Shown here in pieces: positions 17,508 to 63,462 of a DNA stretch of 64,000 nt (position 1 is its first letter; the number at the start of each line of letters is the position of its first letter). This DNA comes from a virus. Location of the stretch: IMG/VR virus record IMGVR_UViG_3300021400_000042; one strand, written 5' to 3'. The translations under genes and the position numbers were made by a program. The notes under the pieces were generated by a model. That model worked only from the letters and a program-made list of their open reading frames with translations. It was not told where the DNA came from and made no database searches.

Positions 17508-20500
17508 ATGATTATTCATGAATTTGATCTGGACATGATACCTGGTGGTAACGTGCCGTCAATCAGGGTGAATCAGTATGATGAAGATTTCAACCTGAAG
17601 ATCAACCTGTTTTCCAGAAACGGGAATTTCTCTGTCCTCAGTGGCACAACCGCCCTGGTAAGAGGAACAAAGCCGGATGGAAATGCCTATTCTGCGGAAG
17701 CCTCCGTCAACGGGACCGTTGTTACCGTGACCGGAAATCAGCAGATCACAGCGGCAGCAGGCAGAGCGATCTTTGAAATTTCCCTCCGCAGGAACGGAAG
17801 AGAACTGAATACGGCAAACTTTGTCATTGATATTGAGCAGGCGGCCATGGATAAGGATACCGTTGCATCCACGTCCGTTGTCAGAGAGCTTGTCGATATT
17901 ATGGATAACTCTGAGGAAATCATCAATGCGGGTCAGCAGTATGAGAATTCTCAGAGGGCGATGGAGGAACTGACTGCGAGATCTGAAGCGGCTGCTGAAA
18001 CAGCAACCACGATGAAGACGCAGACGGAGGAAATCGCTACACAGACTGCTGAGAAATGGACAGAAGTCTCTGAACAGATGGACCGTAAATCTGCAGCTAT
18101 CGCTACTCTGGTATCCAATGCGGATCAAGTGGCGGCAGAGGCATCTGAAAAGGCCGGCAATGCTCTGAACGAGGCAGCGGAAGTATCCAACAGCCTTGAA
18201 GACATTCAGGGGAAAGTTACCGCTCTGGAACTGGGGCAGAACAACTATGTTGCGGATGGTTATGTGGAAGACGAAGAGGCCGTTTTTGTCGATAAGGACG
18301 GAAACGAGATGTTCCGTATTACGGGCATCGGCGGATCCGGCGGCGGTGGCGGAAGTTCTGACCAGACCGTGAAATCCCAGGTTACCATGGACAACATGAC
18401 TGGATGGCTTTCCAAAACGATTGCTGCAGGTGCGGAATGCCCGGTATCCTTTGTATGGTCCTCCACGATGGAAGGCATCCCGACCGGAAACGGCGTTGTC
18501 AGTGTGACTGTCAACAACGTGGTAAAGGCCACTATGGACGTTGCACAGGGAGCCGTAGAGATTGACCTGACTCCGTACATGACTGCAAGCGTGAACCGTG
18601 TCGAAGTTCGTGTAACAGATATTGAGGGTCAGTACAAGAGGATCAATTACAGTATCACGATCATGCAGCTATCTCTCAGCTCCACATTCGACGTGGCCAC
18701 ACCGTATACCGGTGCTATCCCGTTCCCGTACACTCCGATTGGTGCGGTACAGAAGACCGTGCATTTCATCCTGGATGGTACGGAAATCGGCACTCAGCAG
18801 ACCTCCGTAACCGGCAGACAGATGACCTATACGATCCCGGCACAGGCCCACGGCGGCCACTCTATCAGAGTTTACTTTGAGGCAGAGATCAATGGTGAGA
18901 CGGTGCGCTCCAATGAGCTGTACTATGAATTCACCTGCCTGGAAGCGATGAGCGATGAAGTCATCATCACGAGTCCGTACAATCAGGCTACACAGCCGCA
19001 GTATACGTCCATCGCTATTCCGTTCACGGTTTACGATCCGGTATCCCCGACGGCCGAAGTCAAAATCTATGCAAACGGTGAGCTGCTTTCTACTCAGACG
19101 GTTGACAGATCTGAACAGTCCTATACCTACAGGGCAACAGAGGCCGGTCCGCTGGTAATTGAGATCAAGAGCCATGAAACGACCAAAACCTTCAATATCG
19201 AGATCACCGAATCTGATGTCCATGCGGAAGCAGAGACGGAAAACCTTATGCTCTTCCTGTCTTCTCAGGGCAGAAGCAACAATGAGGAAAATCCGTGGAC
19301 ATGGGTTTCCAATGTTGGAGAGAACGATGTCAGTGCAGTTCTTTCCGGCTTCAATGGCGCGTCTGATGGATGGCAGACCGATGAGAGCGGTATTACCTGC
19401 CTGCGCGTGACCGGCGGTGCAAGAGTCCAGATCCCGTATCAGATTTTTGCTGCTGACGCGAGAAGAACAGGTCTTACCTTTGAGATCGAGTATGCAACCA
19501 GAAACGTGTCTGATTACAACGCGACGATCCTTTCCTGCATGAATGGCGGCAGAGGACTTGAAATCACTCCGCAGAGAGCAACACTGAAGTCTGAACAGAC
19601 CGAACTGTACATGCAGTACAAAGAGGGCGAACATATCCGCGTTGCCTATACCATCGGCAAGAGATCTGAAAACCGTCTGGTGAAGAGCTATATCGATGGT
19701 AAGATTGCGAGGGTTACACAGTATCCGGATGATGATGACTTTGCACAGGTAGCGCCCGTTGGAATTTCTATCGGTTCCGATAACTGCACAATCGATATCT
19801 ACTGCATCCGCGTATACACCAATGACCTTACCGCAAATCAGGTCATGGACAACTGGATTGCTGACACACAGGACGGATCCCTGATGCTTGAAAGATATGC
19901 GAGGAACCAGATTTTCGATGCATATGGTCAGGTAGTTCCGGGACAGCTGCCGTCCAACCTTCCTTACATGATTATCGAGTGCGAGGAGCTGCCGCAGTAC
20001 AAGGGCGATAAGAAGACAGTGAATGTATCCTATACGGATCCGCTGTATCCGAGTCATTCCTTCACGGCAGAGAAGGTACAGGCGAACGTCCAGGGTACAT
20101 CTTCCGCCCCGTATGCAGTGAAGAACCTTGACCTGCAGTTCAAGGGCGGCTTTGAGATGACCACAACCGGCCATTCCAAACTGTACAGACTGAGAGACGA
20201 TTCCATGCCGACGGCAAGGTTCGTTCTGAAGGCTGACGTGGCCTCTTCCGAGTCCGCAAACAATACGCAGCTGGTAAGACTGTACAATGACCTTTGCCCG
20301 TATAAGACTCCGGAAATGGAGGAAGATGAGAGAGTCCGTTGGGGTATCGATGGTATCCAGATTGTCATGTTCTGGCGTGACACGGTGACCGGAGATCTGC
20401 ACTTCAAGGGCAAATACAATTTCAACTTCCCGAAGAGGTTCCCGGAGGGGTACGGCTACACAGAGGATCAGGAGTCCTGGGAGTGGCAGAACAACACTTC

Positions 20501-23500
20501 CGACCGTATGCTTTTCAAGTCTGATGACTTTGACAGCATTTATACGGATCCGGAGACTCTGGAACAGTTCCCGGCATGGAAGAACGACTTTGAAGCACGT
20601 TTCCCGGAAGATACCTGGGAAGATATCGACAAACTGAAAGAGTGGATCAGCTGGGTAGTATCTACAGACCGCGATCAGGCTACAGGTGATGCTCTTGAAG
20701 CTCCTGTAACCTATGACGGAACTGAGTACACTGCCGATACTGCGGAATATCGTCTGGCGAAGTTCAAAGCAGAACTGGCGGATTATGCAGAGGTTGACAC
20801 TCTGATTTTCTACTATGTATGGACAGAATTCTTCCTGATGGTAGACTCCCGTGCAAAGAACCTGTTCATGGGCTTCCATGGCAGCCCGTGTGAGATCGAG
20901 GGTAGCGCGATTGATCGTAAGATCGTCGCAGAGCCTTACGATATGGATACCGGCCTGGGAACCAACAATGAAGGTACTCTGACATACACCTACAGTCTGG
21001 AAGATCTGGACACGATTGCCGGCGCGGATGTTTTCAACGGACAGCACTCTGTACTGTGGTGCAACCTGAGAGATACGCACAGAGCCGCAATCGTCAACAT
21101 GTATCAGACGCTCCGTTCCTCCGGCGGCCTTAACTACAAAGCAGTTGAGAAGCGCTATGAGGATGCACAGAATATCTGGCCGGAAGCAGTCTGGAATGAA
21201 GACGGAAGGATCAAATATACCGATCCTCTGACCAATCCGGAGACCGGTAAAGAACCGACGGCCTTCTATCTTCCCATGGCACAGGGATCAAAGGAGCAGC
21301 AGCGTAAATGGTGGCTGGGTAACCGTTTCGCGTACATGGACAGCAAATGGAATGCCGGTGATGCACTGGCACAGGTCATTCAGCTTCGTGGCTATGCAAA
21401 AGCGGATATCACGGTTACACCTTACATTGACCTGTATCCGACGGTCAAATATGGATCCTACCTGGTACAGCAGAGAGGTACGGCGGGGACACCTGCTACA
21501 CTGGCCTGCCCGATGGATTCTGTGAATGATACTGAGATCTATATTTACAGTGCGCCGCAGATTGCAAGCGTGGGCGATCTGTCCGGGCTGAAAGTCGGTG
21601 TCGCTGACTTCTCTCAGGCTACAAACATTCAGGAGGTCAAACTGGGTGATGCGGATCCGAGTTACGAAAACAACAACATGAAGCGTCTGAGCTTCGGCAG
21701 CAACGTTCTTCTGAAGAAGATCGATGTCCGGAACTGTGCGATGCTTGGAACCGACGAACAGAAGAGCGTGGACGTTTCCAACTGCGCTATTCTGGAAGAG
21801 GCTTACTTCGACGGCACAGCTATTCAGGGTCTTTCCCTTCCGAATGGCGGCGTGCTGAGAGTGCTGCACGTACCGGCTACAATGTCGAACCTGACGATCA
21901 GGAACCAGAAGAACCTTGCAGAGTTTGTTATCCCGTCCTACAGCAATATCTCGACGTTGTGGCTGGAAAACAACAGCGCCGTGATTGATACTCTGGATAT
22001 TGTGAAGAAGGTTCCGGCAAATGCCCGTATCCATCTGGTAGGGGTAGCGTGGGAAGCGGCTGACGCGGCAGAGATCAGAACCGTCCTGGATCTTCTTGAT
22101 ACAATGAGAGGTCTGGATGACTACGGCAACAACCAGGATCAGGCGTATGTTTCCGGATCCATCCACACAAGCAGCCTGACCGGTGCTGAAGTGGCGGAGT
22201 TTGAAGGCAGATACCCGTATCTGAAGATCCTTGCTGACCACACAACGTCTTACCGCACCTATGCGGATTATGACGGTACAGAGCTGAAGAAGGTTGCTTG
22301 CATCGACGGCGTACCGCAGGAGAGCGCACCGGCCAATCCGTCTAGGGCGCAGACAGCTCAGTACAGCTATTCCTTCGTGGGATGGTCTAAGAGCATGAAC
22401 GCTGAGACAGCGGACTCTGATGCACTGGATAACGTGATTGCTGACAGGACGATCTATGCGGCCTACAGCAAGACCGTGAGGGAATACACCGTAACATGGA
22501 AGAATGCGGATGGAACCACTCTCAGAACGGATACGCTGAAATATGGCGCAACACCGTCCTGGGGACAGGCTATGCCGACCAATTCCAGCGGCCAGACGGC
22601 ACAGGGATGGACACCGACGATCAGCACGGTCACCGGTAACGCAACCTATACCGCGTCCTACATTCCGGTATACAACGTATACTTCTACAACGGTACGACG
22701 CTGCTGAAGGAACAGCAGGTACAGCAGGGTGGAAATGCTACACCGCCGAGTGAAACACCTGTGAGCGCGGACGGTCCGGATTATGAATTCACCGGATGGC
22801 TGCCGGGGTACACGAACATTCAGGGTAACACTTCCTGCTATGCACAGTTCAAAGCTCCGAGTGCTGTGAAGGAAATCACGGATGACTGGGCAACCATTGT
22901 CTCAAAGATTGCGAACGGCACGGCAAATTACCAGGTAGGTAACTACAAGCCTCTGGACCTTGGTACAGAGGGCGTTGTCAATATGCAGATCGTTGGTAAG
23001 AATACCAGTCCTCTTGCATCCGGCAGCGGAACAGCTACTTATGACTGGCTGAGTATGGAACTGCTTGCAACTGACCATAGAATGAACCCGTCCAACAACA
23101 ATAACGCTGAAGGAACCGGGTCTATCGGTGGTTGGGAGAAGTGTGAAATGAGGAAGTACCTCAAAGAGACCATTAAGCCGCTCATACCTGAGACGGTTAG
23201 AAATGCAATCAAAGAGGTTACGAAGTATTCGCGTATCTTTGATACAAGCGGAACTGCAGTCAACGATGTGGCATCGACAGAAGATGTCTGGATCCCGTCC
23301 AAACGTGAAATGTTTGGTGCAATCAGTAATGCAGAGACGATGGGACCGATCTATGACGGAATCTTCACGGATAATGCAAGCCGTGTGAAGAAGAAAGTAG
23401 GCGCGTCCAGCGCCTCGTTCTGGTGGTGCCGGTCCGCTGGTACCAACCATGGCTTCAGTGGTGTGAACAGCAGCGGCGGCAATAGCTATAACGGCGCGAG

Positions 23501-23537
23501 CAACTCCTACCCGCTGGCCCTGGGCTTCTCAATTTAA
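17508..23537 (+). CDS. Giant modular tail fibre / receptor-binding protein (2009 aa), DGR target 1
   Basis: Contains a BppU_N-like N-terminus, a coiled coil, an LRR-like block (KLGDADPSYENNNMKRLSFGSNVLLKKIDVRNC...) and Listeria-Bacteroides-type repeats (YSFVGWS..., YEFTGWL...). The C-terminal domain ends in VR1. Confidence 0.85.
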   Translation: MIIHEFDLDMIPGGNVPSIRVNQYDEDFNLKINLFSRNGNFSVLSGTTALVRGTKPDGNAYSAEASVNGTVVTVTGNQQITAAAGRAIFEISLRRNGRELNTANFVIDIEQAAMDKDTVASTSVVRELVDIMDNSEEIINAGQQYENSQRAMEELTARSEAAAETATTMKTQTEEIATQTAEKWTEVSEQMDRKSAAIATLVSNADQVAAEASEKAGNALNEAAEVSNSLEDIQGKVTALELGQNNYVADGYVEDEEAVFVDKDGNEMFRITGIGGSGGGGGSSDQTVKSQVTMDNMTGWLSKTIAAGAECPVSFVWSSTMEGIPTGNGVVSVTVNNVVKATMDVAQGAVEIDLTPYMTASVNRVEVRVTDIEGQYKRINYSITIMQLSLSSTFDVATPYTGAIPFPYTPIGAVQKTVHFILDGTEIGTQQTSVTGRQMTYTIPAQAHGGHSIRVYFEAEINGETVRSNELYYEFTCLEAMSDEVIITSPYNQATQPQYTSIAIPFTVYDPVSPTAEVKIYANGELLSTQTVDRSEQSYTYRATEAGPLVIEIKSHETTKTFNIEITESDVHAEAETENLMLFLSSQGRSNNEENPWTWVSNVGENDVSAVLSGFNGASDGWQTDESGITCLRVTGGARVQIPYQIFAADARRTGLTFEIEYATRNVSDYNATILSCMNGGRGLEITPQRATLKSEQTELYMQYKEGEHIRVAYTIGKRSENRLVKSYIDGKIARVTQYPDDDDFAQVAPVGISIGSDNCTIDIYCIRVYTNDLTANQVMDNWIADTQDGSLMLERYARNQIFDAYGQVVPGQLPSNLPYMIIECEELPQYKGDKKTVNVSYTDPLYPSHSFTAEKVQANVQGTSSAPYAVKNLDLQFKGGFEMTTTGHSKLYRLRDDSMPTARFVLKADVASSESANNTQLVRLYNDLCPYKTPEMEEDERVRWGIDGIQIVMFWRDTVTGDLHFKGKYNFNFPKRFPEGYGYTEDQESWEWQNNTSDRMLFKSDDFDSIYTDPETLEQFPAWKNDFEARFPEDTWEDIDKLKEWISWVVSTDRDQATGDALEAPVTYDGTEYTADTAEYRLAKFKAELADYAEVDTLIFYYVWTEFFLMVDSRAKNLFMGFHGSPCEIEGSAIDRKIVAEPYDMDTGLGTNNEGTLTYTYSLEDLDTIAGADVFNGQHSVLWCNLRDTHRAAIVNMYQTLRSSGGLNYKAVEKRYEDAQNIWPEAVWNEDGRIKYTDPLTNPETGKEPTAFYLPMAQGSKEQQRKWWLGNRFAYMDSKWNAGDALAQVIQLRGYAKADITVTPYIDLYPTVKYGSYLVQQRGTAGTPATLACPMDSVNDTEIYIYSAPQIASVGDLSGLKVGVADFSQATNIQEVKLGDADPSYENNNMKRLSFGSNVLLKKIDVRNCAMLGTDEQKSVDVSNCAILEEAYFDGTAIQGLSLPNGGVLRVLHVPATMSNLTIRNQKNLAEFVIPSYSNISTLWLENNSAVIDTLDIVKKVPANARIHLVGVAWEAADAAEIRTVLDLLDTMRGLDDYGNNQDQAYVSGSIHTSSLTGAEVAEFEGRYPYLKILADHTTSYRTYADYDGTELKKVACIDGVPQESAPANPSRAQTAQYSYSFVGWSKSMNAETADSDALDNVIADRTIYAAYSKTVREYTVTWKNADGTTLRTDTLKYGATPSWGQAMPTNSSGQTAQGWTPTISTVTGNATYTASYIPVYNVYFYNGTTLLKEQQVQQGGNATPPSETPVSADGPDYEFTGWLPGYTNIQGNTSCYAQFKAPSAVKEITDDWATIVSKIANGTANYQVGNYKPLDLGTEGVVNMQIVGKNTSPLASGSGTATYDWLSMELLATDHRMNPSNNNNAEGTGSIGGWEKCEMRKYLKETIKPLIPETVRNAIKEVTKYSRIFDTSGTAVNDVASTEDVWIPSKREMFGAISNAETMGPIYDGIFTDNASRVKKKVGASSASFWWCRSAGTNHGFSGVNSSGGNSYNGASNSYPLALGFSI
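23404..23531 (+). repeat. DGR variable region VR1
   Basis: 128 nt, collinear with TR 24132-24259. Has 14 mismatches in the body, all at TR adenines in AAC/AAT codons. Confidence 0.95.
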
Positions 23538-23549
23538 GCCCGTATCCAT

Positions 23550-23576
23550 GATCTGGCCCGCTTGTCGGGCCAGATC
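23550..23576 (+). promoter_or_regulatory. GC hairpin downstream of VR1 (retrohoming-associated)
   Basis: GATCTGGCCCG-CTTGT-CGGGCCAGATC, an 11-bp stem, 18 nt after VR1. Confidence 0.7.
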
Positions 23577-23699: not shown

Positions 23700-24104
23700 A
23701 TGTCGGTCATCCGTAGTAAACGCGCGGAGTCCGAAATGGAGTTTATCCATACTGCCCGACAGCTTCAGGTCTATACGATTCAGAAGTGTGTCGGATTTCC
23801 CAAACGGTACACATTTTACATCGCCCAACCGATTGCAAATGCAGCTACACGGGTGCATGAGCTGACGAAGATGGCGAATAGTGTCTATCCCACCAATTCC
23901 CATGAAGTCCAGCTTCGGCGGGACTATCTCCTCAGAGCAAATGCAGAATTGAACAGCCTTGTCTCACAGATCGAAGTCGCTCATGAGCTATTCGGTCTTG
24001 AACCCAATGTCATGAAATTCTGGATGGATCTGGTGGATAAGGAGATCCGTTTGGTAAAGGGAACTCTGAAAAAGGACAAAGAGCGTTACAAGAATATCAC
24101 ATAA
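23700..24104 (+). CDS. avd: DGR accessory variability determinant (Avd, four-helix bundle)
   Basis: About 134-aa basic helical protein between the target gene and TR. The ATG at 23700 has an AGGTG RBS. Same position as bAvd in BPP-1-type DGRs. Confidence 0.8.
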   Translation: MSVIRSKRAESEMEFIHTARQLQVYTIQKCVGFPKRYTFYIAQPIANAATRVHELTKMANSVYPTNSHEVQLRRDYLLRANAELNSLVSQIEVAHELFGLEPNVMKFWMDLVDKEIRLVKGTLKKDKERYKNIT

Positions 24105-24131: not shown

Positions 24132-24259
24132 CGTCCAGCGCCTCGTTCTGGTGGTGCCGGTCCGCTAATAACAACAATAACTTCAATGGTGTGAACAGCA
24201 GCGGCAACAATAACAATAACAACGCGAACAACTCCTACCCGCTGGCCCTGGGATCCTCA
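24132..24259 (+). repeat. DGR template repeat (TR)
   Basis: Non-coding, with a run of AAC/AAT triplets. Matches VR1 over 128 nt and VR2 over 108 nt. The 3' end GGATCCTCA differs from both VRs (GGCTTCTCA), consistent with an IMH* versus IMH distinction. Confidence 0.95.
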
Positions 24260-24485
24260 TCTGTGAGACAAAGTAACCCATGAGGGCGAAATCAGTGCAA
24301 GAGGATGAGAAGGAGAATAGAACCCTCCATGCGGAAGCATGGTAAATAATGCCCTTGATAGGTCTGGGCGGACGCTGCTTGCATGGCGGTGCTTGATGGT
24401 GATGCACCGTTTCATGCCCACTGACCTTACGCGGCTATATGTAACCATCCGGCAGCCGTACAGGGGCAATTTTAAAAAAGGACTG

Positions 24486-25640
24486 ATGACAATGACCAGT
24501 GAAGAACGTCGGGAGGGACGGTATCAGAGAAGGATTGCAAAGCGCATGGCGAAGAGAAATCAGAGCCGTGCTTTTTGTGATGACTTCAACACCGTATTCT
24601 CTTATGAAAATCTTTACCGGTCATATAAGAAATGCCGCAGGAATGTGGCGTGGAAAGCATCCGTCCAGAAATACATCACGCAAGCGCCTTTGATGGTCAA
24701 TCAGACATACGAAAAGCTGCAGGCGGGGAAATTCAAGTCCAGCGGCTTTTATGAGTTTGATATCAATGAGCGTGGGAAGATCCGGCATATTAAGTCGGTG
24801 ACTATAACAGAAAGAGTGGTACAGCGCTGTCTGTGCGATAATGCGCTTGTACCCATGCTGAGTCCTACTTTCATCTATGATAATGGTGCTTCACTGGAAA
24901 ACCGTGGATATCATTTCTCCATACGGCGGATGGTGAGACACCTGCAGGAGCATTACCGGAAACATGGTACAGAAGGTTATGTCCTGCTTTTTGATTTTTC
25001 CAAATTCTTTGATAATGTCTCTCATGAACTGTGCAAGCAAATCATGAGAGAACAGTTCACCGATGAAAGGGTCATAGGTATCACAGATCATTTCATTGAC
25101 ATGTTCGGTGATGTCGGCCTGGGACTTGGAAGTCAGATCAGTCAGACATTCGCTCTGGCCTCTGCAAATCGTCTCGATCATTATGTGAAAGAGGTACTGC
25201 GGATCAGAGGCTATGGACGGTATATGGATGACGGGTATCTGATTCACGAGAGTAAGGAATACCTGCAGCACTGCCTGACGGAAATCCGGCGGGTATGTAG
25301 GGAACTTGGGATCACGATCAATGAGAAGAAAACGCAGATTGTGAAGATATCCCATGGTTTTACCTTCCTGAAAGCTCGTTTTTACCTCACTGAAACCGGA
25401 AAAGTTGTCCGGAAAATATATAAAAAGTCCATCGTCCGGGAGCGGCGCAAGCTGAAAAAGTTTGTGCCTCTTCTGGAAAACGGGGTCATGAGCTACACGG
25501 ACGTTGCGACGGCCTTTCAGTCGTGGTGTGCGTATGCAAAGAACTTCAGCGCATGGCATACGATACAGAATATGTGTCGATTGTATAATCAACTATTCAT
25601 TTATCCCTGGATAATACAGGGAGGGACACAAGGTTGCTGA
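24486..25640 (+). CDS. DGR reverse transcriptase
   Basis: Contains RYMDDGYL (YMDD box) and LGLGSQISQ (the DGR-type [LIV]GxxxSQ motif). The start is set at ATG 24486 or 24492. The longer ORF from 24339 would cover the TR-RT spacer. Confidence 0.9.
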   Translation: MTMTSEERREGRYQRRIAKRMAKRNQSRAFCDDFNTVFSYENLYRSYKKCRRNVAWKASVQKYITQAPLMVNQTYEKLQAGKFKSSGFYEFDINERGKIRHIKSVTITERVVQRCLCDNALVPMLSPTFIYDNGASLENRGYHFSIRRMVRHLQEHYRKHGTEGYVLLFDFSKFFDNVSHELCKQIMREQFTDERVIGITDHFIDMFGDVGLGLGSQISQTFALASANRLDHYVKEVLRIRGYGRYMDDGYLIHESKEYLQHCLTEIRRVCRELGITINEKKTQIVKISHGFTFLKARFYLTETGKVVRKIYKKSIVRERRKLKKFVPLLENGVMSYTDVATAFQSWCAYAKNFSAWHTIQNMCRLYNQLFIYPWIIQGGTQGC

Positions 25641-38823: not shown

Positions 38824-38965
38824 CGGAGCATAGCTCAATGGTAGAGCGGCGTGTATTCAGTAGCGATGGCGTGTCACATTGACGATACGTTGCTGCGGAG
38901 GGATCCGGACCAGTCACCCGGTTTTCAATTCAGTGACGGTGCAGGTTCAAGTCCTGCTGCTCCGC
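38824..38965 (+). ncRNA. tRNA-like element 1 (expanded anticodon region)
   Basis: Acceptor CGGAGCA/TGCTCCG, TA, D-arm GCTC-AATGGTA-GAGC, T-arm GCAGG-TTCAAGT-CCTGC. About 93 nt lie between the D- and T-arms instead of about 23. Confidence 0.6.
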
Positions 38966-39280
38966 TTATAGAAAACAGGGAGGGGGTGAACAGCTTTTAT
39001 GAATTCGGTGACTATCTTCCGTTTCGGATCTTTCGGATATGTGTCAACAGGAAAAGTATTACTGAGACTATGGCTTTTCGTTGGCATGATATCGCCGGAG
39101 ACAGTGAAAAGCTGGCATCCTATTTAGATTAAGCCCATGTAATGAAGAGCTTCTCGTTTAATAACCCAAAGATCCGAACGATGGTGAGTATTACATGGGC
39201 GCATAAAGCTCAACATGTGAATCGATAGTGCGTGTCTCCTGGCAGTGGAAATACAGGAATCACGACACGCACTCTTTTAT

Positions 39281-39376
39281 CGGAACGTGGACAAGAGGTC
39301 AAAGTCGCAGAGCTGAAAGAGAGATTGATCTGACAAAGGAAGCTCAGAGACGCAGGTTCAAATCCTGCCGTTCCGA
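39281..39376 (+). ncRNA. tRNA-like element 2
   Basis: Acceptor CGGAACG/CGTTCCG, D-arm GAC-AAGAGGTCAAA-GTC, T-arm GCAGG-TTCAAAT-CCTGC. About 45 nt in the anticodon-arm region, with no 7-nt anticodon loop. Confidence 0.55.
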
Positions 39377-39534
39377 AGCGGGGTGGAGAACAAATTATCC
39401 GCGCACCCAGTGACAAGTAGCGATAACACTTGTGAAGTAGGGGGACTAAAGTACACGGCCTCTTGAAAAACAGGTGGCGAAAACGTCAGGCCAACCTTGC
39501 GGGATGAGTGGTTTCGGTTACCTGAACCGACCAT

Positions 39535-39613
39535 CGGAACGTAGCTCAAAGGTAGAGCAGGGAATATGGCGGCCGAGGAAGCCCCGATGCAGGTTCAAGT
39601 CCTGTCGTTCTGA
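39535..39613 (+). ncRNA. tRNA-like element 3
   Basis: Acceptor CGGAACG/CGTTCTG, D-arm GCTC-AAAGGTA-GAGC, T-arm GCAGG-TTCAAGT-CCTGT. The 30-nt middle part does not fold into a canonical anticodon arm. Confidence 0.55.
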
Positions 39614-43660: not shown

Positions 43661-43951
43661 ATGAAGAGAAAAGAGGTTTTACAGCAGGCTGACAAGTGTG
43701 TAAATGGCGAAAGAGAACAGGATTACGGTACACCGGAACAGAACTTTCAGATTATCGCGGACCTGTGGAGCGTTTACAAGGGCGTATCCTTTTCACCGGT
43801 AGATGTGGCAATGATGATGTCCCTTCTGAAGATTGCGCGGATTAAGAGCGGCGGCGGAACCGGTGACAGCTTTGTTGATCTGGCCGGATATGCAGCCTGC
43901 GGCGGCGAACTGGCAGAACTGGAAAAGACGAGAGTGACGGCGAAACGATGA
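43661..43951 (+). CDS. DUF6378-like protein (96 aa)
   Basis: Contains GEREQDYGTPEQNF...KIARIK, resembling DUF6378 phage proteins by eye. Confidence 0.5.
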   Translation: MKRKEVLQQADKCVNGEREQDYGTPEQNFQIIADLWSVYKGVSFSPVDVAMMMSLLKIARIKSGGGTGDSFVDLAGYAACGGELAELEKTRVTAKR

Positions 43952-45306
43952 GAGAAACGAACCTGATAATAGATTGCTTTGCCGGCGGAGGAGGGGCTTC
44001 CGTCGGTATCGAAATGGCGGTAGGCCGCAGCGTAGATATCGCGGTAAACCATGATCCGCAGGCCATACGGATGCATACCGTCAATCACCCGAAAACACTT
44101 CATCTGACAGAGGATATCTTTGAGGTTGATCTGCAGAAATATGTTGGTGGCCGTCATGTGGCCCTTATGTGGGCTTCTCCGGACTGTACGCAGTTCAGTA
44201 AGGCCAAAGGTGGAAAGCCCCGTGTGAGCGGGATCCGGATGCTTCCCTGGGCGGTATATAAACACGCGAAGGCTGTACAGCCGGATGTCATCATTATGGA
44301 AAACGTCGAGGAGATCCAGCAGTGGGGTCCTCTGGATGAGAACGGCAGACCGATAAAAGAAAAGATGGGTGAAGAGTATTCCCGGTTCATATCGGCAGTC
44401 AAAGGTTTGGGCTATGTGTTTGACAGCAGAGAACTGATTGCAGCTGATTACGGCGCTCCCACGACACGGAAACGCTGGTATGCGATATTCCGCAGAGACG
44501 GCAGGCCAATTACCTGGCCGCAGCCGTCTCATTTCAGAGATGCGGAACCGCGCTGGAAGCCATGCGGAGATTATATAGACTGGTCGGATCTGGGGCAGTC
44601 GATCTTTAACCGAAAGAGGCCGTTGGCGGAGGCTACACAACGCAGGATAGCGAACGGTATACGTAAGTATATCGTCGAGAATCCGGATCCGTACATCGTG
44701 AAGGATGAAAAGGCCCTGGCCTTCATCATCCAGTATCACGGAGAACAGAAGGATGGGGATAGCCGGGGACAGGTCCTCACAGAGCCAATCAGAACTATAG
44801 ACACGTCAAATCGGTACGGACTGGTAACGGCCTTTGTGACGAAGTTCTATAAAACCGGGATCGGGCAGGGGTGTGACGAACCGCTGCATACGATCACAAC
44901 AAGCCCCGGACACTTTGGCGTGATATCGGCATTCTTGGTCAAGTATTACGGGCAGGGATGCGGTCAGCAGGTATCAGAACCGCTGGCAACGATCACGACA
45001 AAAGACAGGTTTGGTCTGGTTAATGTACTGCTGACTATAGATGGTCAGAAATACGTTATTTCAGATATATTTCTGCGAATGCTGAAGCCTACAGAACTGA
45101 AGGTTATGCAGGGATTTCCGAATGATTACATCATCGGATATGACCTGTCATGGAGGAAGATGTCTGTAGCAGAGCAGGTCGCAAAAATAGGAAACAGCGT
45201 TTCCCCGCCGGTTGCTAAAGCACTTGTGGAGGCGAACTGTGCATATCTCAAAGAGGGCGAGAGGAAACCGATAATCAGTTTTGACAGACTGGAAAAGACC
45301 GGTTGA
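43948..45306 (+). CDS. DNA (cytosine-5)-methyltransferase
   Basis: Motif I DCFAGGGG, motif IV-like SPDCTQFS, motif VI IIMENVEE. Confidence 0.8.
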   Translation: MRETNLIIDCFAGGGGASVGIEMAVGRSVDIAVNHDPQAIRMHTVNHPKTLHLTEDIFEVDLQKYVGGRHVALMWASPDCTQFSKAKGGKPRVSGIRMLPWAVYKHAKAVQPDVIIMENVEEIQQWGPLDENGRPIKEKMGEEYSRFISAVKGLGYVFDSRELIAADYGAPTTRKRWYAIFRRDGRPITWPQPSHFRDAEPRWKPCGDYIDWSDLGQSIFNRKRPLAEATQRRIANGIRKYIVENPDPYIVKDEKALAFIIQYHGEQKDGDSRGQVLTEPIRTIDTSNRYGLVTAFVTKFYKTGIGQGCDEPLHTITTSPGHFGVISAFLVKYYGQGCGQQVSEPLATITTKDRFGLVNVLLTIDGQKYVISDIFLRMLKPTELKVMQGFPNDYIIGYDLSWRKMSVAEQVAKIGNSVSPPVAKALVEANCAYLKEGERKPIISFDRLEKTG

Positions 45307-45319
45307 ATAAGGAGGCATT

Positions 45320-45925
45320 ATGAAAATCGGAAGAGAGATCAAAGAGACCTGGGCAGAAATCGAAGAGCTTCAGAAGAATGGCGCATTGCTGAATCGGTGC
45401 GTTCCCGGGGATTACAAGCTCGTAGATTTTGGAGAGGATGGCGTTATCAGAATGCGCTTTGCCGGATTACATAAGGACGTAAGGGAATATGGAGAACCGG
45501 CTTATGCAACATGGGTTGCAGGAGATCTGACTGCAAAGAGACACCAGATGCACAATGACTGGTTTGGTGAGTACAGCAAATCGGATCTTAGAAAATGGCT
45601 GAACGATGAACTGTATAACCGGCTGCCGGATGACCTGAAGAGAATCATCGTTCCTGTGCTGAAACGGCAGGTGGCGTATGACGCGGACTGGAATTGCTAC
45701 ACAGATGAAGTGGTGGATAAAATCTGGATCCCGTCGTTTGCGGAGCTATTTGAGGGCGGATATCCTGATCTGTTTACAGACGATGAGAGCCGCGCTATGG
45801 GTGCGTTTTATTGGTGCCGGTCCGCTTATAACGGCAATTACTTCAGTGGTGTGGACAGCAGCGGCAACAATAGCCATGACATCGCGGACTACTCCTACCC
45901 GCTGGCCCTGGGCTTCTCAACCTGA
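45320..45925 (+). CDS. DGR target 2: stand-alone paralogue of the fibre C-terminal (DUF6273/CLec-like) domain, 201 aa
   Basis: Aligns by eye with the last ~240 aa of the 2009-aa fibre (IKETWAEI.. vs ITDDWATI..; RKWLN.. vs RKYLK..; IWIPS..E.F). Ends in VR2. Confidence 0.85.
   Translation: MKIGREIKETWAEIEELQKNGALLNRCVPGDYKLVDFGEDGVIRMRFAGLHKDVREYGEPAYATWVAGDLTAKRHQMHNDWFGEYSKSDLRKWLNDELYNRLPDDLKRIIVPVLKRQVAYDADWNCYTDEVVDKIWIPSFAELFEGGYPDLFTDDESRAMGAFYWCRSAYNGNYFSGVDSSGNNSHDIADYSYPLALGFST
45812..45919 (+). repeat. DGR variable region VR2
   Basis: 108 nt, collinear with TR 24152-24259. Has 12 mismatches in the body, all at TR adenines. Same GGCTTCTCA 3' end as VR1. Confidence 0.95.
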
Positions 45926-45934
45926 TCTTGAATC

Positions 45935-45955
45935 CGCGCCCGCTTGTCGGGCGCG
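45935..45955 (+). promoter_or_regulatory. GC hairpin downstream of VR2
   Basis: CGCGCCCG-CTTGT-CGGGCGCG, 15 nt after VR2. Same loop and inner stem as the VR1 hairpin. Confidence 0.7.
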
Positions 45956-45989
45956 TAAACCAAAAACAGGAAGGAGGAAAAGACCAAAT

Positions 45990-46196
45990 ATGAAGGTCAC
46001 ATTGTTTTCGACAAACTGTCCGCGCTGTAAAGTCCTGGCACAGAAATTAACGGATAAGGGTATTGAATTCAATATCTCGGAAGACGTTGATGAGATGATC
46101 CGCAGGGGCTTCAGAAGTGCGCCGGTATTGGATGTTGACGGAAACTCGATGAATTTTAGTGATGCAATCAACTGGGTTGACGGCAGGGAAGGATAA
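45990..46196 (+). CDS. Glutaredoxin-like protein (NrdH-like)
   Basis: 68 aa with CPRC. AAGGAGGA RBS. Directly upstream of nrdD. The longer 45678 ORF is rejected. Confidence 0.7.
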   Translation: MKVTLFSTNCPRCKVLAQKLTDKGIEFNISEDVDEMIRRGFRSAPVLDVDGNSMNFSDAINWVDGREG

Positions 46197-46198
46197 CT

Positions 46199-48118
46199 AT
46201 GTACATACCTATCAAAGTAAACAAGGACTTTGAAAGAGTCCTTGACGGGTTGATTAAGAAGTATGGCGAAGACTTTGAAACCCTGAACGGTTTTCACGAG
46301 TCTCAGCTGAATTTTTCGGATTTTATCGATGGGTTCATTGATAAGAATGTGGCGGATGCTACGATTGACAGCAATGCGAACGCCCATCATAAGGACATCC
46401 GAAGCATGATGAATGAGAAGGGCAAATCGGAAGACAAGCTCTTCTGCTACAACAAAATCTATTTTGAACTGAAAAAGAAATATGGTCTCAGGACAGCAAA
46501 CGAGTGGCTGGAAACGGAGTACAACGGCGGGTTCTATCTGCATAATGCTCACACGAGTTCCATGATCCCGTATTGCTATGCTTACGATCTCAGCAGACTG
46601 GCAACAGAGGGACTTTTCTTCCTGGAAAACTACAACAATGAAGCTCCGAAGCACCTGACTACATTCCTGGATGACCTGATCGAATTTATCAGTTTCATGT
46701 CTAATCGCAGTTCAGGGGCCTGTGGTATCCCGAATGTCCTTCTGTGGACTATGTATTTCTGGAAGAAGGACTGTGATAACGGGTACTACATCAAAGATCC
46801 GGATTATTACATCCGGCAGTGTTTCCAGAAGTTTATTTACAGAATGAATCAGCCATTTATCAGGGTCGATCAGAGCGCCTTTGTCAATGTATCGATCTTT
46901 GACCGACATTACTATGAAGCTCTTTTCGGTGGGGTAACCTTCCCGGATGGATCCTTTGCCATTGATTATGTGGACCTGTTCATGGAGCATCAGAAAGTGT
47001 TCATGGAGGTTGTTTCGGACATCCGCAGCGCCAATATGTTCACGTTTCCGGTTCTGACCTATTCCCTGCTTTTCAAAGACGGAAAGTTTGCAGATGAGGA
47101 ATTTGCAAGATGGTGTTCTGACCATAACTGTACCTGGAACGACAGCAATTTCTTCCAGAGCGAAAGCACGGGAACGCTGTCAAACTGCTGCCGGCTTTTA
47201 TCCGATACAACGAAGCTGGATGCCTTTATCAATTCCATCGGCGGCACGGCCCTTTCCATCGGATCCGTACAGGTCAACACAATCAATCTGGTAAGGATTG
47301 CTTACGAGGCCGAAGGGGACGAAGAGAAGTATCTGGAAATCCTGAAGAAACGTGCGCTGCTTTGCTGTAAGGTGCTGGACGTTGTGCGGCACATCATAAA
47401 ACGGAACATCGAAAAGGGCCTGCTGCCGAATTACTGTGACGGCGGGATCGAGCTGGAAAAGCAGTATGCTACACTGGGCATTTTGGGATTATTTGAAACG
47501 GTGGAAGCATTCGGTCATACGGTCCGGGATGAGTTCGGAAACGTCTCATACACGGATGAAGGTATTGCCCTGGCGGATCAGATTTTCAAGGTCCTCAATG
47601 ATGTGAAGGATACCTTCCCGAAGGATTATTCCTTCAATATCGAGTCAGTGCCGGCGGAACGGGCAGCAGTCATCCTGTGCCAGAAGGACAATCTGCTGTA
47701 TGAGAAGAACGAGAAGTTCATCTATTCAAATCAGTGGATCCCGCTCTCAGAGAAATGCACGATTCAGGAAAAGCTCAGACTCAGCTCTATTCTGGATGAG
47801 AAGTGTTCCGGCGGAGCGATAGCACATATCAACCTGGAACAGAATTTCCCGAATACGGAAGTAGCCTGGAAGATGCTGAACTATATCGCGTCTCAGGGAG
47901 TGTTCTACTTCGCTTTCAATACCCGGATCAATGAGTGCAAAAACCATCACGGTTTTGTGGGTACGGATACATGCCCGGTATGTGGGGAGCCTGTCTATGA
48001 CACCTATCAGCGGATCGTGGGGTTCCTGGAACCGCGCCGGACATATTCCAAAGACAGGAAGCGTGAGTTTGATACCCGTAAATGGTATGAGTATGCGGAT
48101 CTGAAAGGTGAGATATGA
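46199..48118 (+). CDS. nrdD: Anaerobic ribonucleoside-triphosphate reductase
   Basis: C-terminal CPVCG Zn site and a glycyl-radical-type motif (QRIVGFL). Confidence 0.85.
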   Translation: MYIPIKVNKDFERVLDGLIKKYGEDFETLNGFHESQLNFSDFIDGFIDKNVADATIDSNANAHHKDIRSMMNEKGKSEDKLFCYNKIYFELKKKYGLRTANEWLETEYNGGFYLHNAHTSSMIPYCYAYDLSRLATEGLFFLENYNNEAPKHLTTFLDDLIEFISFMSNRSSGACGIPNVLLWTMYFWKKDCDNGYYIKDPDYYIRQCFQKFIYRMNQPFIRVDQSAFVNVSIFDRHYYEALFGGVTFPDGSFAIDYVDLFMEHQKVFMEVVSDIRSANMFTFPVLTYSLLFKDGKFADEEFARWCSDHNCTWNDSNFFQSESTGTLSNCCRLLSDTTKLDAFINSIGGTALSIGSVQVNTINLVRIAYEAEGDEEKYLEILKKRALLCCKVLDVVRHIIKRNIEKGLLPNYCDGGIELEKQYATLGILGLFETVEAFGHTVRDEFGNVSYTDEGIALADQIFKVLNDVKDTFPKDYSFNIESVPAERAAVILCQKDNLLYEKNEKFIYSNQWIPLSEKCTIQEKLRLSSILDEKCSGGAIAHINLEQNFPNTEVAWKMLNYIASQGVFYFAFNTRINECKNHHGFVGTDTCPVCGEPVYDTYQRIVGFLEPRRTYSKDRKREFDTRKWYEYADLKGEI

Positions 48119-48585
48119 AGATAAAGGTCGTGAATGTAATAGATGAGGATTTCTCAAATTACAAACGTGCATCCATGACCATAGGTTTTCCGTTCTGTAC
48201 TTTCAAGTGTGGGCGGCAGGTGTGTCAGAACGGCACACTTGCCGCAGCCCCAAAGATCGAGATAGAGGCGGCGGATCTGGTAGAGCGGTACATGAAAAAT
48301 CCCATTACGGAAGCAATCATCTTTCAGGGATTGGAACCGTTCGACTCTCCGGAGGTCTTTGATCTGGTAGCGGAATTCCGAGATAAGACGGATGACACGA
48401 TTGTGATTTATACCGGCTACACAAGGGAAGAGGCGGATGACAGAGCATGGATAGATTACTTGAAGTTCTTCCCGAATATCATTGTGAAGTACGGCCGGTT
48501 TATCCCCGGACAGGAACCACACTTTGATGAGGTTCTGGGAGTAAACCTTGCTTCTGATAACCAGTATGCAGTGAAGGAGTCCTGA
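48115..48585 (+). CDS. nrdG: Anaerobic RNR activating protein (radical SAM)
   Basis: ATGA overlap with nrdD. Cys cluster FCTFKCGRQVC. 156 aa. Confidence 0.65.
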   Translation: MKIKVVNVIDEDFSNYKRASMTIGFPFCTFKCGRQVCQNGTLAAAPKIEIEAADLVERYMKNPITEAIIFQGLEPFDSPEVFDLVAEFRDKTDDTIVIYTGYTREEADDRAWIDYLKFFPNIIVKYGRFIPGQEPHFDEVLGVNLASDNQYAVKES

Positions 48586-48982: not shown

Positions 48983-49219
48983 ATGGCGATTGAGAAACGT
49001 TGGGAACATGGAGAAGAGATCTTCACACCGGTCTGTGATGGATGCGGTGATGAGTTGGCCGACGAATATGATTTTTATGACGCGGTAGACGCGAAGAAAC
49101 TTGCAGGATGGCGGTCAAAGAAGATTGATGGGGAATGGCAGGACTATTGTCCGGAATGCCAGGAGAGATTTAATCACGAAAACGCTGTGGGCGATTTTGC
49201 AGGGATAGGGAGGTTATAA
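48983..49219 (+). CDS. Zinc-ribbon protein (78 aa)
   Basis: Contains CDGCG...CPEC. Confidence 0.5.
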   Translation: MAIEKRWEHGEEIFTPVCDGCGDELADEYDFYDAVDAKKLAGWRSKKIDGEWQDYCPECQERFNHENAVGDFAGIGRL

Positions 49220-50678: not shown

Positions 50679-53147
50679 ATGAAACTACAGTATGACCGAC
50701 AGCTCACTATTTCAGTAGGGAACAGTCGGAAGGACATGAATTGGAAACCACAAACACTGACGATCGGTGAGTTGTGGGAAAGACTCAAAGTACCGGCAAG
50801 GGGTACGGAAACCATATCTCAATACCTTGCACTCAAAAAGGCGCAGCAGGACGAACTGAAGGACGTTGGCGGTTTTATGGCCGGTACACTGAGCGGCGGC
50901 AGGCGTAAAGCCTCCGCCGTTACCGGCAGGGATGTGGTCACGCTGGACTTTGATACCATTCCAGCCTATGGCACGGAAGGCGTGCTGAAGGCAGCCGATA
51001 ACCTGGGCTGCGGGTATGCCGTTTATAGTACCAGAAAGCATATCGAGACAGCGCCGCGCCTGAGATTACTTTTCCCTCTGGATAGAACAGTATCGGCAGA
51101 TGAGTATGAACCGATTGCCCGGTGGATGGCTGCACAGATCGGCATTCAGATGGCGGATCCTACCACGTTTGAACCGTCACGCCTTATGTACTGGCCTTCC
51201 TGTAGCGTGGACAGCGACTATGTATTCAAGTACAAGGACGCGCCACTTGTGAAGGCCGACGGCGTGCTGAACAGCTACACAGACTGGCGGGACTTCTCAT
51301 CCTGGCCGCAGGTTCCCGGAGCTGTCAGCTATCAGCGCCTTGCTACAAAGCAGGGTGATCCGGATACAAAACCGGGTGTCGTGGGCGCTTTTAACCGGGC
51401 ATACGGGGATGTCTATACCGTCATGGACAAGGTTATCCCTGGTATCTATGATCCGGTTGACGGAGATCCGAACAGATTCACGTATCTGGGCGGCAGCACG
51501 ACAGGCGGCGCGGTGGTGTACGACAACGGAAAGTTCTTGTATTCCCATCATGCGACGGATCCGTGCGGCGGAAAGCTGGTCAACTGTTTTGATCTGGTAC
51601 GCCTTCACAAGTTTGGTGACAAGGACGATGAGGCAGCGGCCGGCACTCCGAATAACCGTCTTCCGTCCTATCTGGCCATGTGTGAGTTCGCGGTTGCGGA
51701 TCCCTTGTGTTCTGCACTGATGGCGAAGGAACGCCACGAAGAGGCCATGAAGGATTTTGACGGCGTTGGGGCAGATAATCACGATGACCCGGCCAACTGG
51801 ATGCAGAAGCTCGATCTGAACGCCAAATCAGGCCTTGTAAAGCCTACCATTGACAACATTCTCATAATCCTTGACAACGATCCGATGCTGAAGAAAAAGT
51901 TCGCACTGAATCAGTTTGCAGGGCGCGGGGAGATCCTGGGGCAGCTTCCCTGGTCGAACGATAAGACGCGCCGGCTGTGGTCCGATACGGACAGCAACGG
52001 CCTTTACTGGTATCTGGAAAAGGCCTACCAAATCACCGGCAGAGGGAACATTGACGCGGCGCTGGATATTCACGCAGCCACGCACGCATTCAATGAGGTG
52101 CAGGATTATCTGAAGAGTCTGGAATGGGACGGTGTGCCGCGTCTGGACACGCTCTTTATCGACTATCTGGGGGCGGAGGATGACGCGGCGGGATACTGCA
52201 GGGCAGTGTGTCGGAAGTCCTTCACGGCGGCCGTAGCGCGTGCCATGGAGCCGGGTTGTAAGTTCGATAACATGCTGATTCTTTGTGGTCCGCAGGGCAT
52301 CGGAAAGTCAACCATATTAGACCGCATGAGTCACGGCTGGTTCAATGACAGTATCCGGACGTTTGAAGGCAAGGAAGCGGCGGAGCTGCTGCCGGGTGTC
52401 TGGATCGTGGAGGTGGCGGAGCTGGATGCATTTCGGCGGACGGACGTTGCCCGTATCAAACAGTTCCTCTCACTGAGATCTGACAGGTACAGAGCAGCAT
52501 ACGGACGGAACATGAAGGAACAGCCACGGACATGCATCTTCTTTGGAACCTGTAACCAGATGGACTTCCTGCAGGATACGACAGGAAACCGGAGGTTCTG
52601 GCCGGTGGACGTGGGGAAAAAGCTACACCCTAAGAATGTATGGAAGGATCTGACCGATGAAACGGTAGCGCAGGTCTGGGCGGAAGCAAAAGTCAGATGG
52701 CAGATGGGTGAACAGCTCTATCTCACGGGTGATCTGGAAGAGGCCGCAAAGGAACATCAGGAGCAGCACAGAGACACTTCACCGTGGGAAGGCATGATAC
52801 ATGAATTCATGGCAAAGCCGGTTCCGGATGACTGGTTGAAATGGGATCTGGACAGGCGGCGCGACTTCTGGGCGGCAAACGTGAAGGGCAGTTATAACCT
52901 GGTTCCCCGTGATCGGATAACAGCTATTGAAGTATGGTGCGAAATGTTCATGGGGAGAAAAAACGATATGAAAGCTAATGATCGGAAGGAAATAAATGCG
53001 TGTTTGGCGAATGCAAAGGGCTGGATCCGGGCAGATAAGCCGTTTTATGCAGGAATACCCTATGCGACGCAGAGAGGGTTTATTTCCAATATGACAGGCG
53101 TTCAGGCGGCATATAACCAAATTACAAACGGATGTAATATCCCGTAA
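50679..53147 (+). CDS. VirE / P4-type primase-helicase (822 aa)
   Basis: Walker A motif CGPQGIGKST. Size and context match virulence-associated-E or D5-like primase-helicases. Confidence 0.75.
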   Translation: MKLQYDRQLTISVGNSRKDMNWKPQTLTIGELWERLKVPARGTETISQYLALKKAQQDELKDVGGFMAGTLSGGRRKASAVTGRDVVTLDFDTIPAYGTEGVLKAADNLGCGYAVYSTRKHIETAPRLRLLFPLDRTVSADEYEPIARWMAAQIGIQMADPTTFEPSRLMYWPSCSVDSDYVFKYKDAPLVKADGVLNSYTDWRDFSSWPQVPGAVSYQRLATKQGDPDTKPGVVGAFNRAYGDVYTVMDKVIPGIYDPVDGDPNRFTYLGGSTTGGAVVYDNGKFLYSHHATDPCGGKLVNCFDLVRLHKFGDKDDEAAAGTPNNRLPSYLAMCEFAVADPLCSALMAKERHEEAMKDFDGVGADNHDDPANWMQKLDLNAKSGLVKPTIDNILIILDNDPMLKKKFALNQFAGRGEILGQLPWSNDKTRRLWSDTDSNGLYWYLEKAYQITGRGNIDAALDIHAATHAFNEVQDYLKSLEWDGVPRLDTLFIDYLGAEDDAAGYCRAVCRKSFTAAVARAMEPGCKFDNMLILCGPQGIGKSTILDRMSHGWFNDSIRTFEGKEAAELLPGVWIVEVAELDAFRRTDVARIKQFLSLRSDRYRAAYGRNMKEQPRTCIFFGTCNQMDFLQDTTGNRRFWPVDVGKKLHPKNVWKDLTDETVAQVWAEAKVRWQMGEQLYLTGDLEEAAKEHQEQHRDTSPWEGMIHEFMAKPVPDDWLKWDLDRRRDFWAANVKGSYNLVPRDRITAIEVWCEMFMGRKNDMKANDRKEINACLANAKGWIRADKPFYAGIPYATQRGFISNMTGVQAAYNQITNGCNIP

Positions 53148-63318: not shown

Positions 63319-63462
63319 CGATGCCCTCCGAGGTCTGCGGACCGGCGGTGAAAGCTCATTCTTTTTGGAGATTATGAGAAAGGCTACACAGTAAAAAGAG
63401 TTTTACTTTTCCCGTCGTTGTGGTAGAATCTTTTTATCACAATATGAGGGAGGCGTTTATAG

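Follow-up and report, generated by a model that had tools for sequence, protein, structure and literature searches.

Whether a single diversity-generating retroelement (DGR) can rewrite two genes that lie far apart in one phage genome is the question raised by IMG/VR virus record IMGVR_UViG_3300021400_000042, from which one stretch of 64,000 nucleotides (nt) was analyzed. This whole stretch is termed the window; all coordinates are window positions unless a related contig is named, and L and P labels denote the related contigs and proteins, respectively, that were compared with it. An earlier interpretation made from the letters alone (the sequence-only reading) had proposed that one reverse transcriptase (RT) and one template repeat (TR) diversify both the tip of the tail fibre and a free-standing copy of it, a protein of 201 residues encoded about 21.5 kb away. 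The results presented below uphold this proposal through adenine-only changes, a shared initiation of mutagenic homing (IMH) sequence, and variation between strains, and the 201-residue open reading frame (ORF) is very probably a real second target of the one DGR of this phage, and one that was rewritten recently. The elements concerned are as follows.

17508..23537, plus strand: tail fibre of 2009 residues with a C-terminal DUF6273 domain, the primary DGR target (ORF list, Pfam).
23404..23531, plus strand: variable repeat 1 (VR1), at the 3' end of the fibre ORF (repeat search; its adenine sites vary in 10 strains).
23700..24104, plus strand: Avd accessory protein, 134 residues from its ATG (PHROG 3206, 'Avd protein of DGR', E 1.9e-12).
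24132..24259, plus strand: TR, flanked by the genes for Avd and the RT; the part at 24152-24259 would template VR2.
24259..24488, plus strand: RT-2 RNA motif (Rfam RF03077, 146 bits, E 2e-34).
24492..25640, plus strand: DGR RT, 382 residues (Pfam RVT_1; PHROG 1423, E 1e-87; also called at 382 residues in relatives).
45309..45315, plus strand: Shine-Dalgarno sequence AAGGAGG, 4 nt before the ATG of the 201-residue ORF and 3 nt after the methylase stop codon.
45320..45925, plus strand: 201-residue ORF, a single DUF6273 domain of the orf43-like type and very probable second DGR target (Pfam PF19789, E 2.3e-10).
45812..45919, plus strand: VR2, at the 3' end of the 201-residue ORF, homologous to TR 24152-24259.
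45827..45890, plus strand: mutable core of VR2 (codons 170-191), which holds all adenine-site changes between VR2 and TR and all differences from the related contig L032.

The repeat search revealed one family of three copies in the window, located at 23404-23531 (VR1), 24132-24259 (TR), and 45792-45919 (VR2). Base-by-base comparison of TR 24152-24259 with VR2 showed 14 mismatches. All 12 of those in the mutable part (TR 24167-24230) were at TR adenines, for which p = 3e-7 given 33 adenines in 101 positions, and the other two (A24253->C and C24255->T) were also found in VR1. The 12 adenine-only substitutions previously described are therefore the correct count for the mutable part, with 14 mismatches overall. 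Within the window genome, VR1 and VR2 carry different sets of substitutions, as had been claimed, and the measured TR-to-VR2 offset of 21,660 nt agrees with the earlier estimate that VR2 lies about 21.5 kb downstream of the TR.

Three further elements define the 3' boundary of the two targets.

45910..45919, plus strand: IMH-like end GGGCTTCTCA of VR2; the TR carries the IMH* form GGGATCCTCA.
45935..45955, plus strand: GC-rich VR2 hairpin CGCGCCCG-CTTGT-CGGGCGCG, 15 nt past the IMH (DNA fold z -4.2).
23550..23576, plus strand: GC-rich VR1 hairpin GATCTGGCCCG-CTTGT-CGGGCCAGATC, 18 nt past the IMH (DNA fold z -5.2).

The two mismatches outside the mutable part convert TR GGGATCCTCA to GGGCTTCTCA, identically at VR1 and VR2, and constitute the IMH*/IMH distinction; the proposal that VR2 ends in the same IMH-like sequence as VR1 is borne out by these common differences. 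This end is kept in close relatives, and in the two most diverged (L005 and L013) GGCTTCTC is followed by a different base. The hairpins of VR1 and VR2 share the CTTGT loop and differ in their stems, and no comparable hairpin was found 3' of the TR (DNA fold z -0.2). The VR2 hairpin is conserved in all relatives compared, and in the diverged relative L007 a G:C pair of the VR1 stem has become C:G, a compensatory change. In phage BPP-1, a heterologous gene becomes a homing target when it is given no more than an IMH and, downstream of it, a hairpin with a sequence-specific loop and a sequence-free stem (Guo et al. 2011, PMC3240598). The hairpins of the window match these rules in having a fixed loop, a variable stem, and a position 3' of the VR (PMC3240598), and by this analogy the GC-rich hairpin of VR2 is likely to be a DGR target-recognition hairpin or cruciform. 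A role as a terminator is unlikely because no T-run follows the hairpin, and no terminator was called there. With TR homology, an IMH-type end, and a GC-rich hairpin, VR2 carries every element known to be needed by a DGR target.

The 5' limit of TR homology varies among strains (TGGTGCCGG versus TGGCTGCGG). At the 5' edge of VR2 (window 45812-45820 compared with L025, L030, L031, and L034), codon 166 encodes either Cys, which is TR-like, or Leu, and in L001 and L006 the homology to the TR reaches 12 nt further 5', turning GAFYW into ASFWW. It may be that past homing events stopped at different places on the 5' side, as would be expected if the 5' junction of the cDNA is not fixed.

A mechanism for rewriting at this distance is provided by the BPP-1 paradigm, in which RT and Avd would reverse-transcribe TR RNA with errors opposite adenines, and the resulting cDNA would home in trans to any DNA that carries an IMH and a hairpin, so that one cassette could serve both the fibre tip and a remote gene. 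On this analogy, diversification of VR2 by trans-acting mutagenic retrohoming via its IMH and hairpin is well supported. The cassette itself is compact: the RT-2 motif begins at the last base of the TR and stops just before the RT start, a position that suggests it is the DGR spacer RNA. The 433-residue RT ORF that opens at 24339 is over-extended, with the real start at 24492, because the RT-2 RNA occupies 24259-24488 and the gene calls of relatives agree. An exact match to the 134-residue Avd product that starts at ATG is on record on many contigs, and no record was found of a 137-residue form starting at GTG.

The central issue is whether VR2 is still being rewritten. A lookup of the NrdH and Avd proteins of the window yielded 10 related contigs each. 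The TR was identical in nine of 10 related strains, and the single C->T change of the tenth was mirrored in its own VR1; VR1 differed among the 10 strains at adenine sites. Over 4,906 nt around the 201-residue ORF, L032 and the window showed 17 differences, all within 45827-45890 and all at TR adenines. Eight copies of VR2 were found that share the TR allele of the window, and among these 30 of 33 adenine sites were polymorphic compared with 4 of 59 other sites (Fisher p 1.4e-16), with every one of the eight copies being distinct. The load of adenine-site changes was similar at the two targets, with 15.1 per copy in VR2 and 14.2 in VR1, and both followed an A->G>T>C spectrum. One distant relative, with 67% protein identity, has a VR2 (L005) that equals its own diverged TR (L007) at non-adenines and differs only at adenines, which amounts to concerted evolution. 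Comparison of strains shows repeated overwriting of codons ∼166-194 by adenine-specific changes, with the remainder of the gene conserved, and, as far as comparison of sequences can establish it, recent rewriting of VR2 is confirmed.

Genes of bacterial type are present on the L005 contig as well, and NCBI has records of these same proteins under a Eubacterium sp. metagenome-assembled genome. L005 and L007 (18459-21194) belong to one contig of 146.7 kb, on which phage genes stand beside GFO_IDH_MocA, thioredoxin, and trigger-factor genes. These features point to an integrated prophage in a Clostridia host. Many sample record names begin with STEW18/19, XIEF21, or SHIW14, which we take to denote rumen and ruminant-gut datasets, and the phage of the window is probably from the ruminant gut.

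The comparison bears directly on the possibility that VR2 is a relic, left over when the fibre tip was duplicated long ago or by a single homing event in the past, with its resemblance to the TR inherited and no longer renewed. A relic would be expected to be invariant while VR1 varies, and VR2 was found to vary as much as VR1: over 4.9 kb, otherwise identical genomes are set apart by 17 positions, each a TR adenine in VR2, all eight copies with the same TR allele are distinct with a load equal to that of VR1, and VR2 co-evolves with its own TR in the diverged relative. The IMH-like end and hairpin are also kept in relatives, the end being slightly diverged in L005 and L013. This explanation is consequently very improbable, even though it can draw on the recurrence of identical VR2 proteins, on one relative with a truncated RT, and on one homologue with a VR unlike a DGR product, all of which are taken up below.

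Equally improbable is the view that VR2 diversity arises by recombination or gene conversion with VR1 or with the fibre tips of other phages rather than by TR-templated reverse transcription. The 108-128 nt of homology between the two loci could support such exchange, and the non-adenine tracts in VR2 of near-identical strains (L009 and L026-L029) are possible imports. Conversion between VRs is disfavoured, however, because it would not create the adenine-confined pattern seen among copies with the same TR (30 of 33 sites versus 4 of 59). In addition, VR1 and VR2 of the same genome carry different substitutions, and the variable tract stops exactly at the IMH. That the gene is a silent cassette for recombination with the fibre is likewise unlikely, since identity outside the VR is no higher than 32%. 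Recurrence of the locus in the same context on many independent contigs rules out an artefact of assembly.

Several observations weigh against the reading of VR2 as a recently rewritten DGR target. The activity of VR2 is read from differences between assemblies. The same VR2 protein can be found on many contigs from several samples (P0015 on 15 and P0008 on 5), and because these proteins recur unchanged, VR2 alleles can evidently persist and spread clonally, which implies that rewriting is episodic and not continuous. On L019 (3794-4579), which is from the same contig as L031, the RT call is truncated to 261 residues, and this cassette may have been inactivated recently; VR1 and VR2 of the contig both carry adenine-site substitutions despite the short RT call. 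In the most diverged homologue, P0024 (L013 8269-8874, 58% identity), the VR has K and E residues that are impossible from AAY codons, and a slightly diverged IMH-like end GGCTTCTCT is retained together with the same hairpin; P0024 may have decayed as a target, or its template may be another one. Its gene stands five small genes after a methylase and before NADAR and MazG genes.

In L009/L010 and L026-L029, flanks that are 99% identical to the window surround a VR2 that departs from the window TR at many sites other than adenines (GCC..TCT..GCG versus GCG..TCC..CCG is one case), which suggests origin from other TR alleles or from swapped cassettes. The alternative VR2/TR allele of L009, sought in IMG/VR as a degenerate DNA pattern, gave no match. 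Finally, neither a Foldseek search of the PDB nor a profile hmmsearch of PDB sequences with the 201-residue protein returned a C-type-lectin or Mtd match. DUF6273 is described in the literature as C-type-lectin-like, and the assignment of this fold rests on that description since the PDB searches gave nothing.

Inspection of the 201-residue polypeptide shows a single domain and nothing else. Its DUF6273 score of 41.1 bits is nearly the same as that of the fibre tip (41.2 bits; gathering cut-off 23.5), and residues 5-200 align to fibre residues 1788-2008 with 32% identity (E 3e-29). The sequence-only reading had described the protein as a paralogue of the last ∼240 residues of the fibre; the paralogy stands, and the extent is ∼220 residues. 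Its further statement that the protein has no obvious signal peptide or fibre-attachment region is also sustained, since no N-terminal hydrophobic stretch is present and the whole protein aligns to the fibre domain. No signal peptide, transmembrane segment, or N-terminal extension was found in the 201-residue protein. A model obtained with AF2 showed one compact domain (pTM 0.76, mean pLDDT 77) with low confidence only in the VR, and its Foldseek matches in BFVD were phage proteins of the DUF6273, tail-collar fibre, and receptor-binding kinds, with E down to 1e-7 and TM ∼0.5.

A protein search yielded 27 close homologues. All 23 that are full length have 199-201 residues, and the ORF was called at 201 residues on every further related contig examined. 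Pairwise dN/dS values of 0.07-0.25 over codons 1-164, at divergences up to dS ∼2, indicate purifying selection on the ORF outside VR2. Consistent with this, entropy in the protein alignment was 0.49 bits over residues 1-165 compared with 2.1-2.9 bits at codons with an adenine in the TR codon. The constant length and low dN/dS also speak against a pseudogene or a decayed ORF in relatives. In a search of representative proteins, most of 865 homologues carried the domain at the end of long fibre-like proteins, with bare forms of ∼200 residues a small minority. A megablast of 43900-48200 against INPHARED phages gave no match, and an IMG/VR scan for the 201-residue protein gave one locus. The protein is not a recent copy of the tip of this fibre; it is a member of an older conserved family of small orf43-like proteins.

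The genomic setting of the ORF is that given by the sequence-only reading, between a C5-methyltransferase and nrdH/nrdD: the ORF begins 13 nt after the C5-methylase ORF and ends 64 nt before nrdH, with nrdD next. The surrounding genome is arranged as follows.

1 to ∼23.5 kb: head and tail genes, among them that of the fibre, 17508-23537 (PHROG/Pfam matches).
23.7-25.6 kb: DGR cassette (PHROG/Pfam matches).
Up to 28.6 kb: lysis genes (PHROG/Pfam matches).
32.4-35.0 kb, minus strand: serine integrase, ImmA-like protease, and repressor (PHROG/Pfam matches).
35.2 to at least 55.2 kb, plus strand: PDDEXK nuclease, SSB-like protein, PolA, ThyX, DUF6378, C5 methylase, the 201-residue ORF, NrdH, NrdD, NrdG-like protein, MazG, VapE, and SNF2 (PHROG/Pfam).
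57.7 kb: transcriptional regulator (PHROG/Pfam matches).
61.4-63.1 kb: TerS and TerL (PHROG/Pfam matches).

The 201-residue ORF falls well inside the replication and nucleotide-metabolism module; the lysogeny switch, at ∼35 kb, is ∼10 kb away. Scans for promoters and terminators around the ORF were at chance level, and none was called adjacent to it. Position (tight spacing, a strong ribosome-binding site, and no promoter or terminator called) makes it probable that the protein is soluble, cytoplasmic, and expressed together with the replication genes, and the same positional argument would place its expression early or in the middle of infection. Synteny around the ORF is conserved on the related contigs compared. 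The 21.7-kb distance between TR and VR2 belongs to the arrangement of the window, because VR2 is ∼45 kb upstream of the TR in the Eubacterium-associated contig. The neighbouring C5 methylase varies in near-identical strains (L009 9012-9987, L010 5186-6907, L025, and L033), where it is truncated by insertion of a GNAT acetyltransferase, split in two, or replaced by PG_binding-domain genes; the 201-residue ORF is intact in all of them.

Other features of the window were noted in passing. An intergenic block of ∼240 nt is duplicated 24.5 kb apart (28637-28869 and 53121-53341, plus strand, 74-91% identity), and its copies follow the endolysin gene and the VapE gene. The block has TTACAAA/GTAAT inverted and direct repeats and a conserved CCCTGTCCCGCCTAAT segment, and may be a regulator-binding array, an origin, or a small RNA. 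A GP20-a RNA motif (3221-3319, plus strand) lies upstream of a head gene. ARAGORN called tRNA-Leu(AAG) and tRNA-Tyr(GTA), listed at 39280-39377 and 63236-63319 (plus strand), and two more tRNA-like Rfam matches, at 38824-38965 (142 nt) and 39535-39613 (plus strand), were not called by ARAGORN. Tandem repeats of 153 nt (51 residues; 76-80% identity) occupy 11573-12129 (plus strand) inside the 1626-residue ORF at 8435-13315, which by size and position would be the tape-measure protein.

Remote targets have precedent. Non-adjacent targets are common in phage-associated DGRs and usually lie less than 50 kb from the RT (Wu et al. 2018, PMC5758913), remote targets would escape detection in large metagenomic surveys (PMC8144416), and DUF6273 is a recognized DGR target domain of which small single-domain versions are known (PMC10743442; PMC11792537). 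Small remote targets have already been published, namely orf43 of phage Shimadzu and gp24 of FP_Toutatis (see also Wu et al. 2018), and the present case is not new in kind.

The closest parallel is Shimadzu orf43 (LR596903, 32976-33605; 209 residues), which has full-length homology to the family of the window protein (hhalign 99.0%, 180 columns, E 3.5e-18). The two proteins are ∼21% identical in the profile alignment, and neither has extra domains. In Shimadzu, the fibre, Avd, and RT genes are at 17.8-21.1 kb, and orf43, the target that carries VR2, is ∼13 kb from this fibre-Avd-TR-RT cassette in the replication module, directly after the DNA methylase orf42. Its neighbours are Erf, SSB, and replication genes, whereas the window ORF precedes nrdH/nrdD. 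Reads from Shimadzu virions showed 10-15 DGR-type mismatches in both VRs (10.1101/575076). Shimadzu is a myovirus of human-gut Roseburia, whereas the window represents a different phage, with a 2009-residue fibre and probably from the ruminant gut.

A second homologue (PP511788, 35648-36313; 221 residues) comes from Dulem virus 34, a myovirus of lemur faeces, and aligns to 99% of the query at 27% identity. Its gene comes directly after an MboIIA-like adenine methylase in the early region, and its VR has adenine-only mismatches to a TR 14,775 nt away. A second VR ends an Ig-like tail protein, whose neighbours are an ORF likely to encode Avd, the TR, and a further ORF in which a YMDD motif of the RT type occurs; hairpins follow both VRs, with GAAA loops in place of the CTTGT of the window. 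RT, Avd, and repeat features are absent from the annotation of this record. P0028, another small homologue (210 residues), is encoded between PolA and ThyX.

FP_Toutatis gp24 (Faecalibacterium phage, NC_047915, 11505-12152) is a 215-residue DUF6273 protein of the early region, near methylases and a prohibitin, and has been described as a remote second DGR target and a core gene of unknown function (10.1101/2024.10.15.618418). Its VR lies ∼17.5 kb from the TR on the circular map, and the repeat (11932-12035 versus 49076-49179) was confirmed here. No homology between gp24 and the window family was detected by BLASTP (E 1.5) or hhalign (1.6%), and gp24 is therefore an analogue by Pfam label and layout only. 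It differs further in that its VR is not at the extreme 3' end and in that the target adjacent to the cassette is a tentaclin or Hoc-like protein, not a fibre.

Other known targets were also compared. The tgt2 proteins of nd4 and nd12 (Baykov et al. 2023, PMC10743442) resemble the window protein as small single-domain DUF6273 proteins with a C-terminal VR and as second targets of a phage DGR, one TR serving two proteins, and they too are without the β-prism and β-sandwich of Mtd. They differ in lying inside the DGR cassette by tail genes and in having flanking helices and lengths of 234 and 294 residues (PMC10743442). Tentaclin (Baykov et al. 2023) has an N-terminal DUF6273 followed by Ig-like domains, whereas the window protein is a single domain with a C-terminal VR. 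BPP-1 Mtd is like the window target in adenine-specific transfer, the IMH versus IMH* distinction, the GC hairpin, and a C-terminal VR on a ligand-binding domain. Unlike the window ORF, the gene for Mtd is adjacent to its cassette, and Mtd has N-terminal trimerization and attachment domains and is a proven receptor-binding protein of the virion. No Mtd-type N-terminal β-prism or β-sandwich was found in the window protein, all 201 residues of which align to the terminal domain of the fibre.

A small DUF6273 gene directly after a methylase was seen in Shimadzu (L039 32642-33605), Dulem virus 34 (L036 8154-9666), the window (43948-45925), and L005 (8583-10600), and the methylases concerned belong to different families. 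A Band_7/prohibitin gene was also observed near the small DUF6273 gene in L005 and in FP_Toutatis. The adjacency to methylases could be chance in methylase-rich modules, or it could be a functional link. Together with the window protein, the small orf43-like proteins (∼200-220 residues; Shimadzu orf43, the Dulem virus 34 homologue, and P0028) form a conserved family of remote targets in replication modules, often directly after a methylase.

What the protein binds can be addressed with less assurance. That it acts as an extracellular accessory module binding receptors or glycans, either joining the virion or released at lysis, comes close to an even chance, and the more specific proposal that it belongs to the virion, where it would dock on the fibre or baseplate without a covalent bond, as an adhesin like Mtd or gp38, and extend or alter host range, is put forward tentatively. 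The domain is the same as that of the receptor-binding tip of the fibre, with the VR drawn from the same template, and the fibre-like context of most of the 865 homologues and the BFVD matches to tail-collar fibre, receptor-binding, and DUF6273 proteins point in the same direction. Receptor binding is also the default view of the literature (PMC10743442; 10.1101/2024.10.15.618418). Set against this, the protein is without an N-terminal attachment or trimerization module and without an export signal, and at least five phage lineages have its gene in the replication module, not among the tail genes.

A lesser possibility is that the protein binds an intracellular host target in early or middle infection, and some other role accounts for the remainder. 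A hypervariable binder directed at a variable host factor, such as a defence protein, and encoded in a counter-defence cluster with DNA methylases is of similarly modest probability. It would explain the conserved position in an early or replication operon, directly after methylases of different families in three lineages (C5 in the window, MboIIA-like in Dulem virus 34, and orf42 in Shimadzu). The lack of a signal peptide or anchor and the persistence of the gene where the neighbouring methylase is disrupted or replaced are in keeping with it. There is also the precedent of bacterial conflict systems, whose putative DGR-diversified antigen sensors are intracellular and based on C-type lectins. 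The argument is, however, purely one of position; replication modules of Firmicutes phages are methylase-rich, and the adjacency may be chance. All characterized relatives of the domain bind extracellular ligands, and the protein has no effector domain. Putative antigen sensors diversified by DGRs are described for bacterial conflict systems in PMC10907252.

This case leaves the understanding of how DGRs work unchanged. It adds a well-documented uncultured example to the small set of phages in which one DGR rewrites a fibre tip and also, among the replication genes, a small homologous domain that stands alone, and it ties together the separately described cases of Shimadzu orf43, FP_Toutatis gp24, Dulem virus 34, and P0028. 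The layout that recurs is a bare DUF6273 gene of ∼200-220 residues, often right after a DNA methylase, and this layout survives decay of the methylase and, in one relative (L019/L031), is found with a truncated RT. The question of what this family does is thereby sharpened and is testable in the cultivable Shimadzu system. It is a doubtful suggestion that orf43-like proteins are non-virion, early cytoplasmic binders that the DGR re-randomizes against a variable host target, forming with the methylases a programmable counter-defence module. If that were true, their recurrence in the replication modules of unrelated siphoviruses and myoviruses would represent an unrecognized general strategy of phages.

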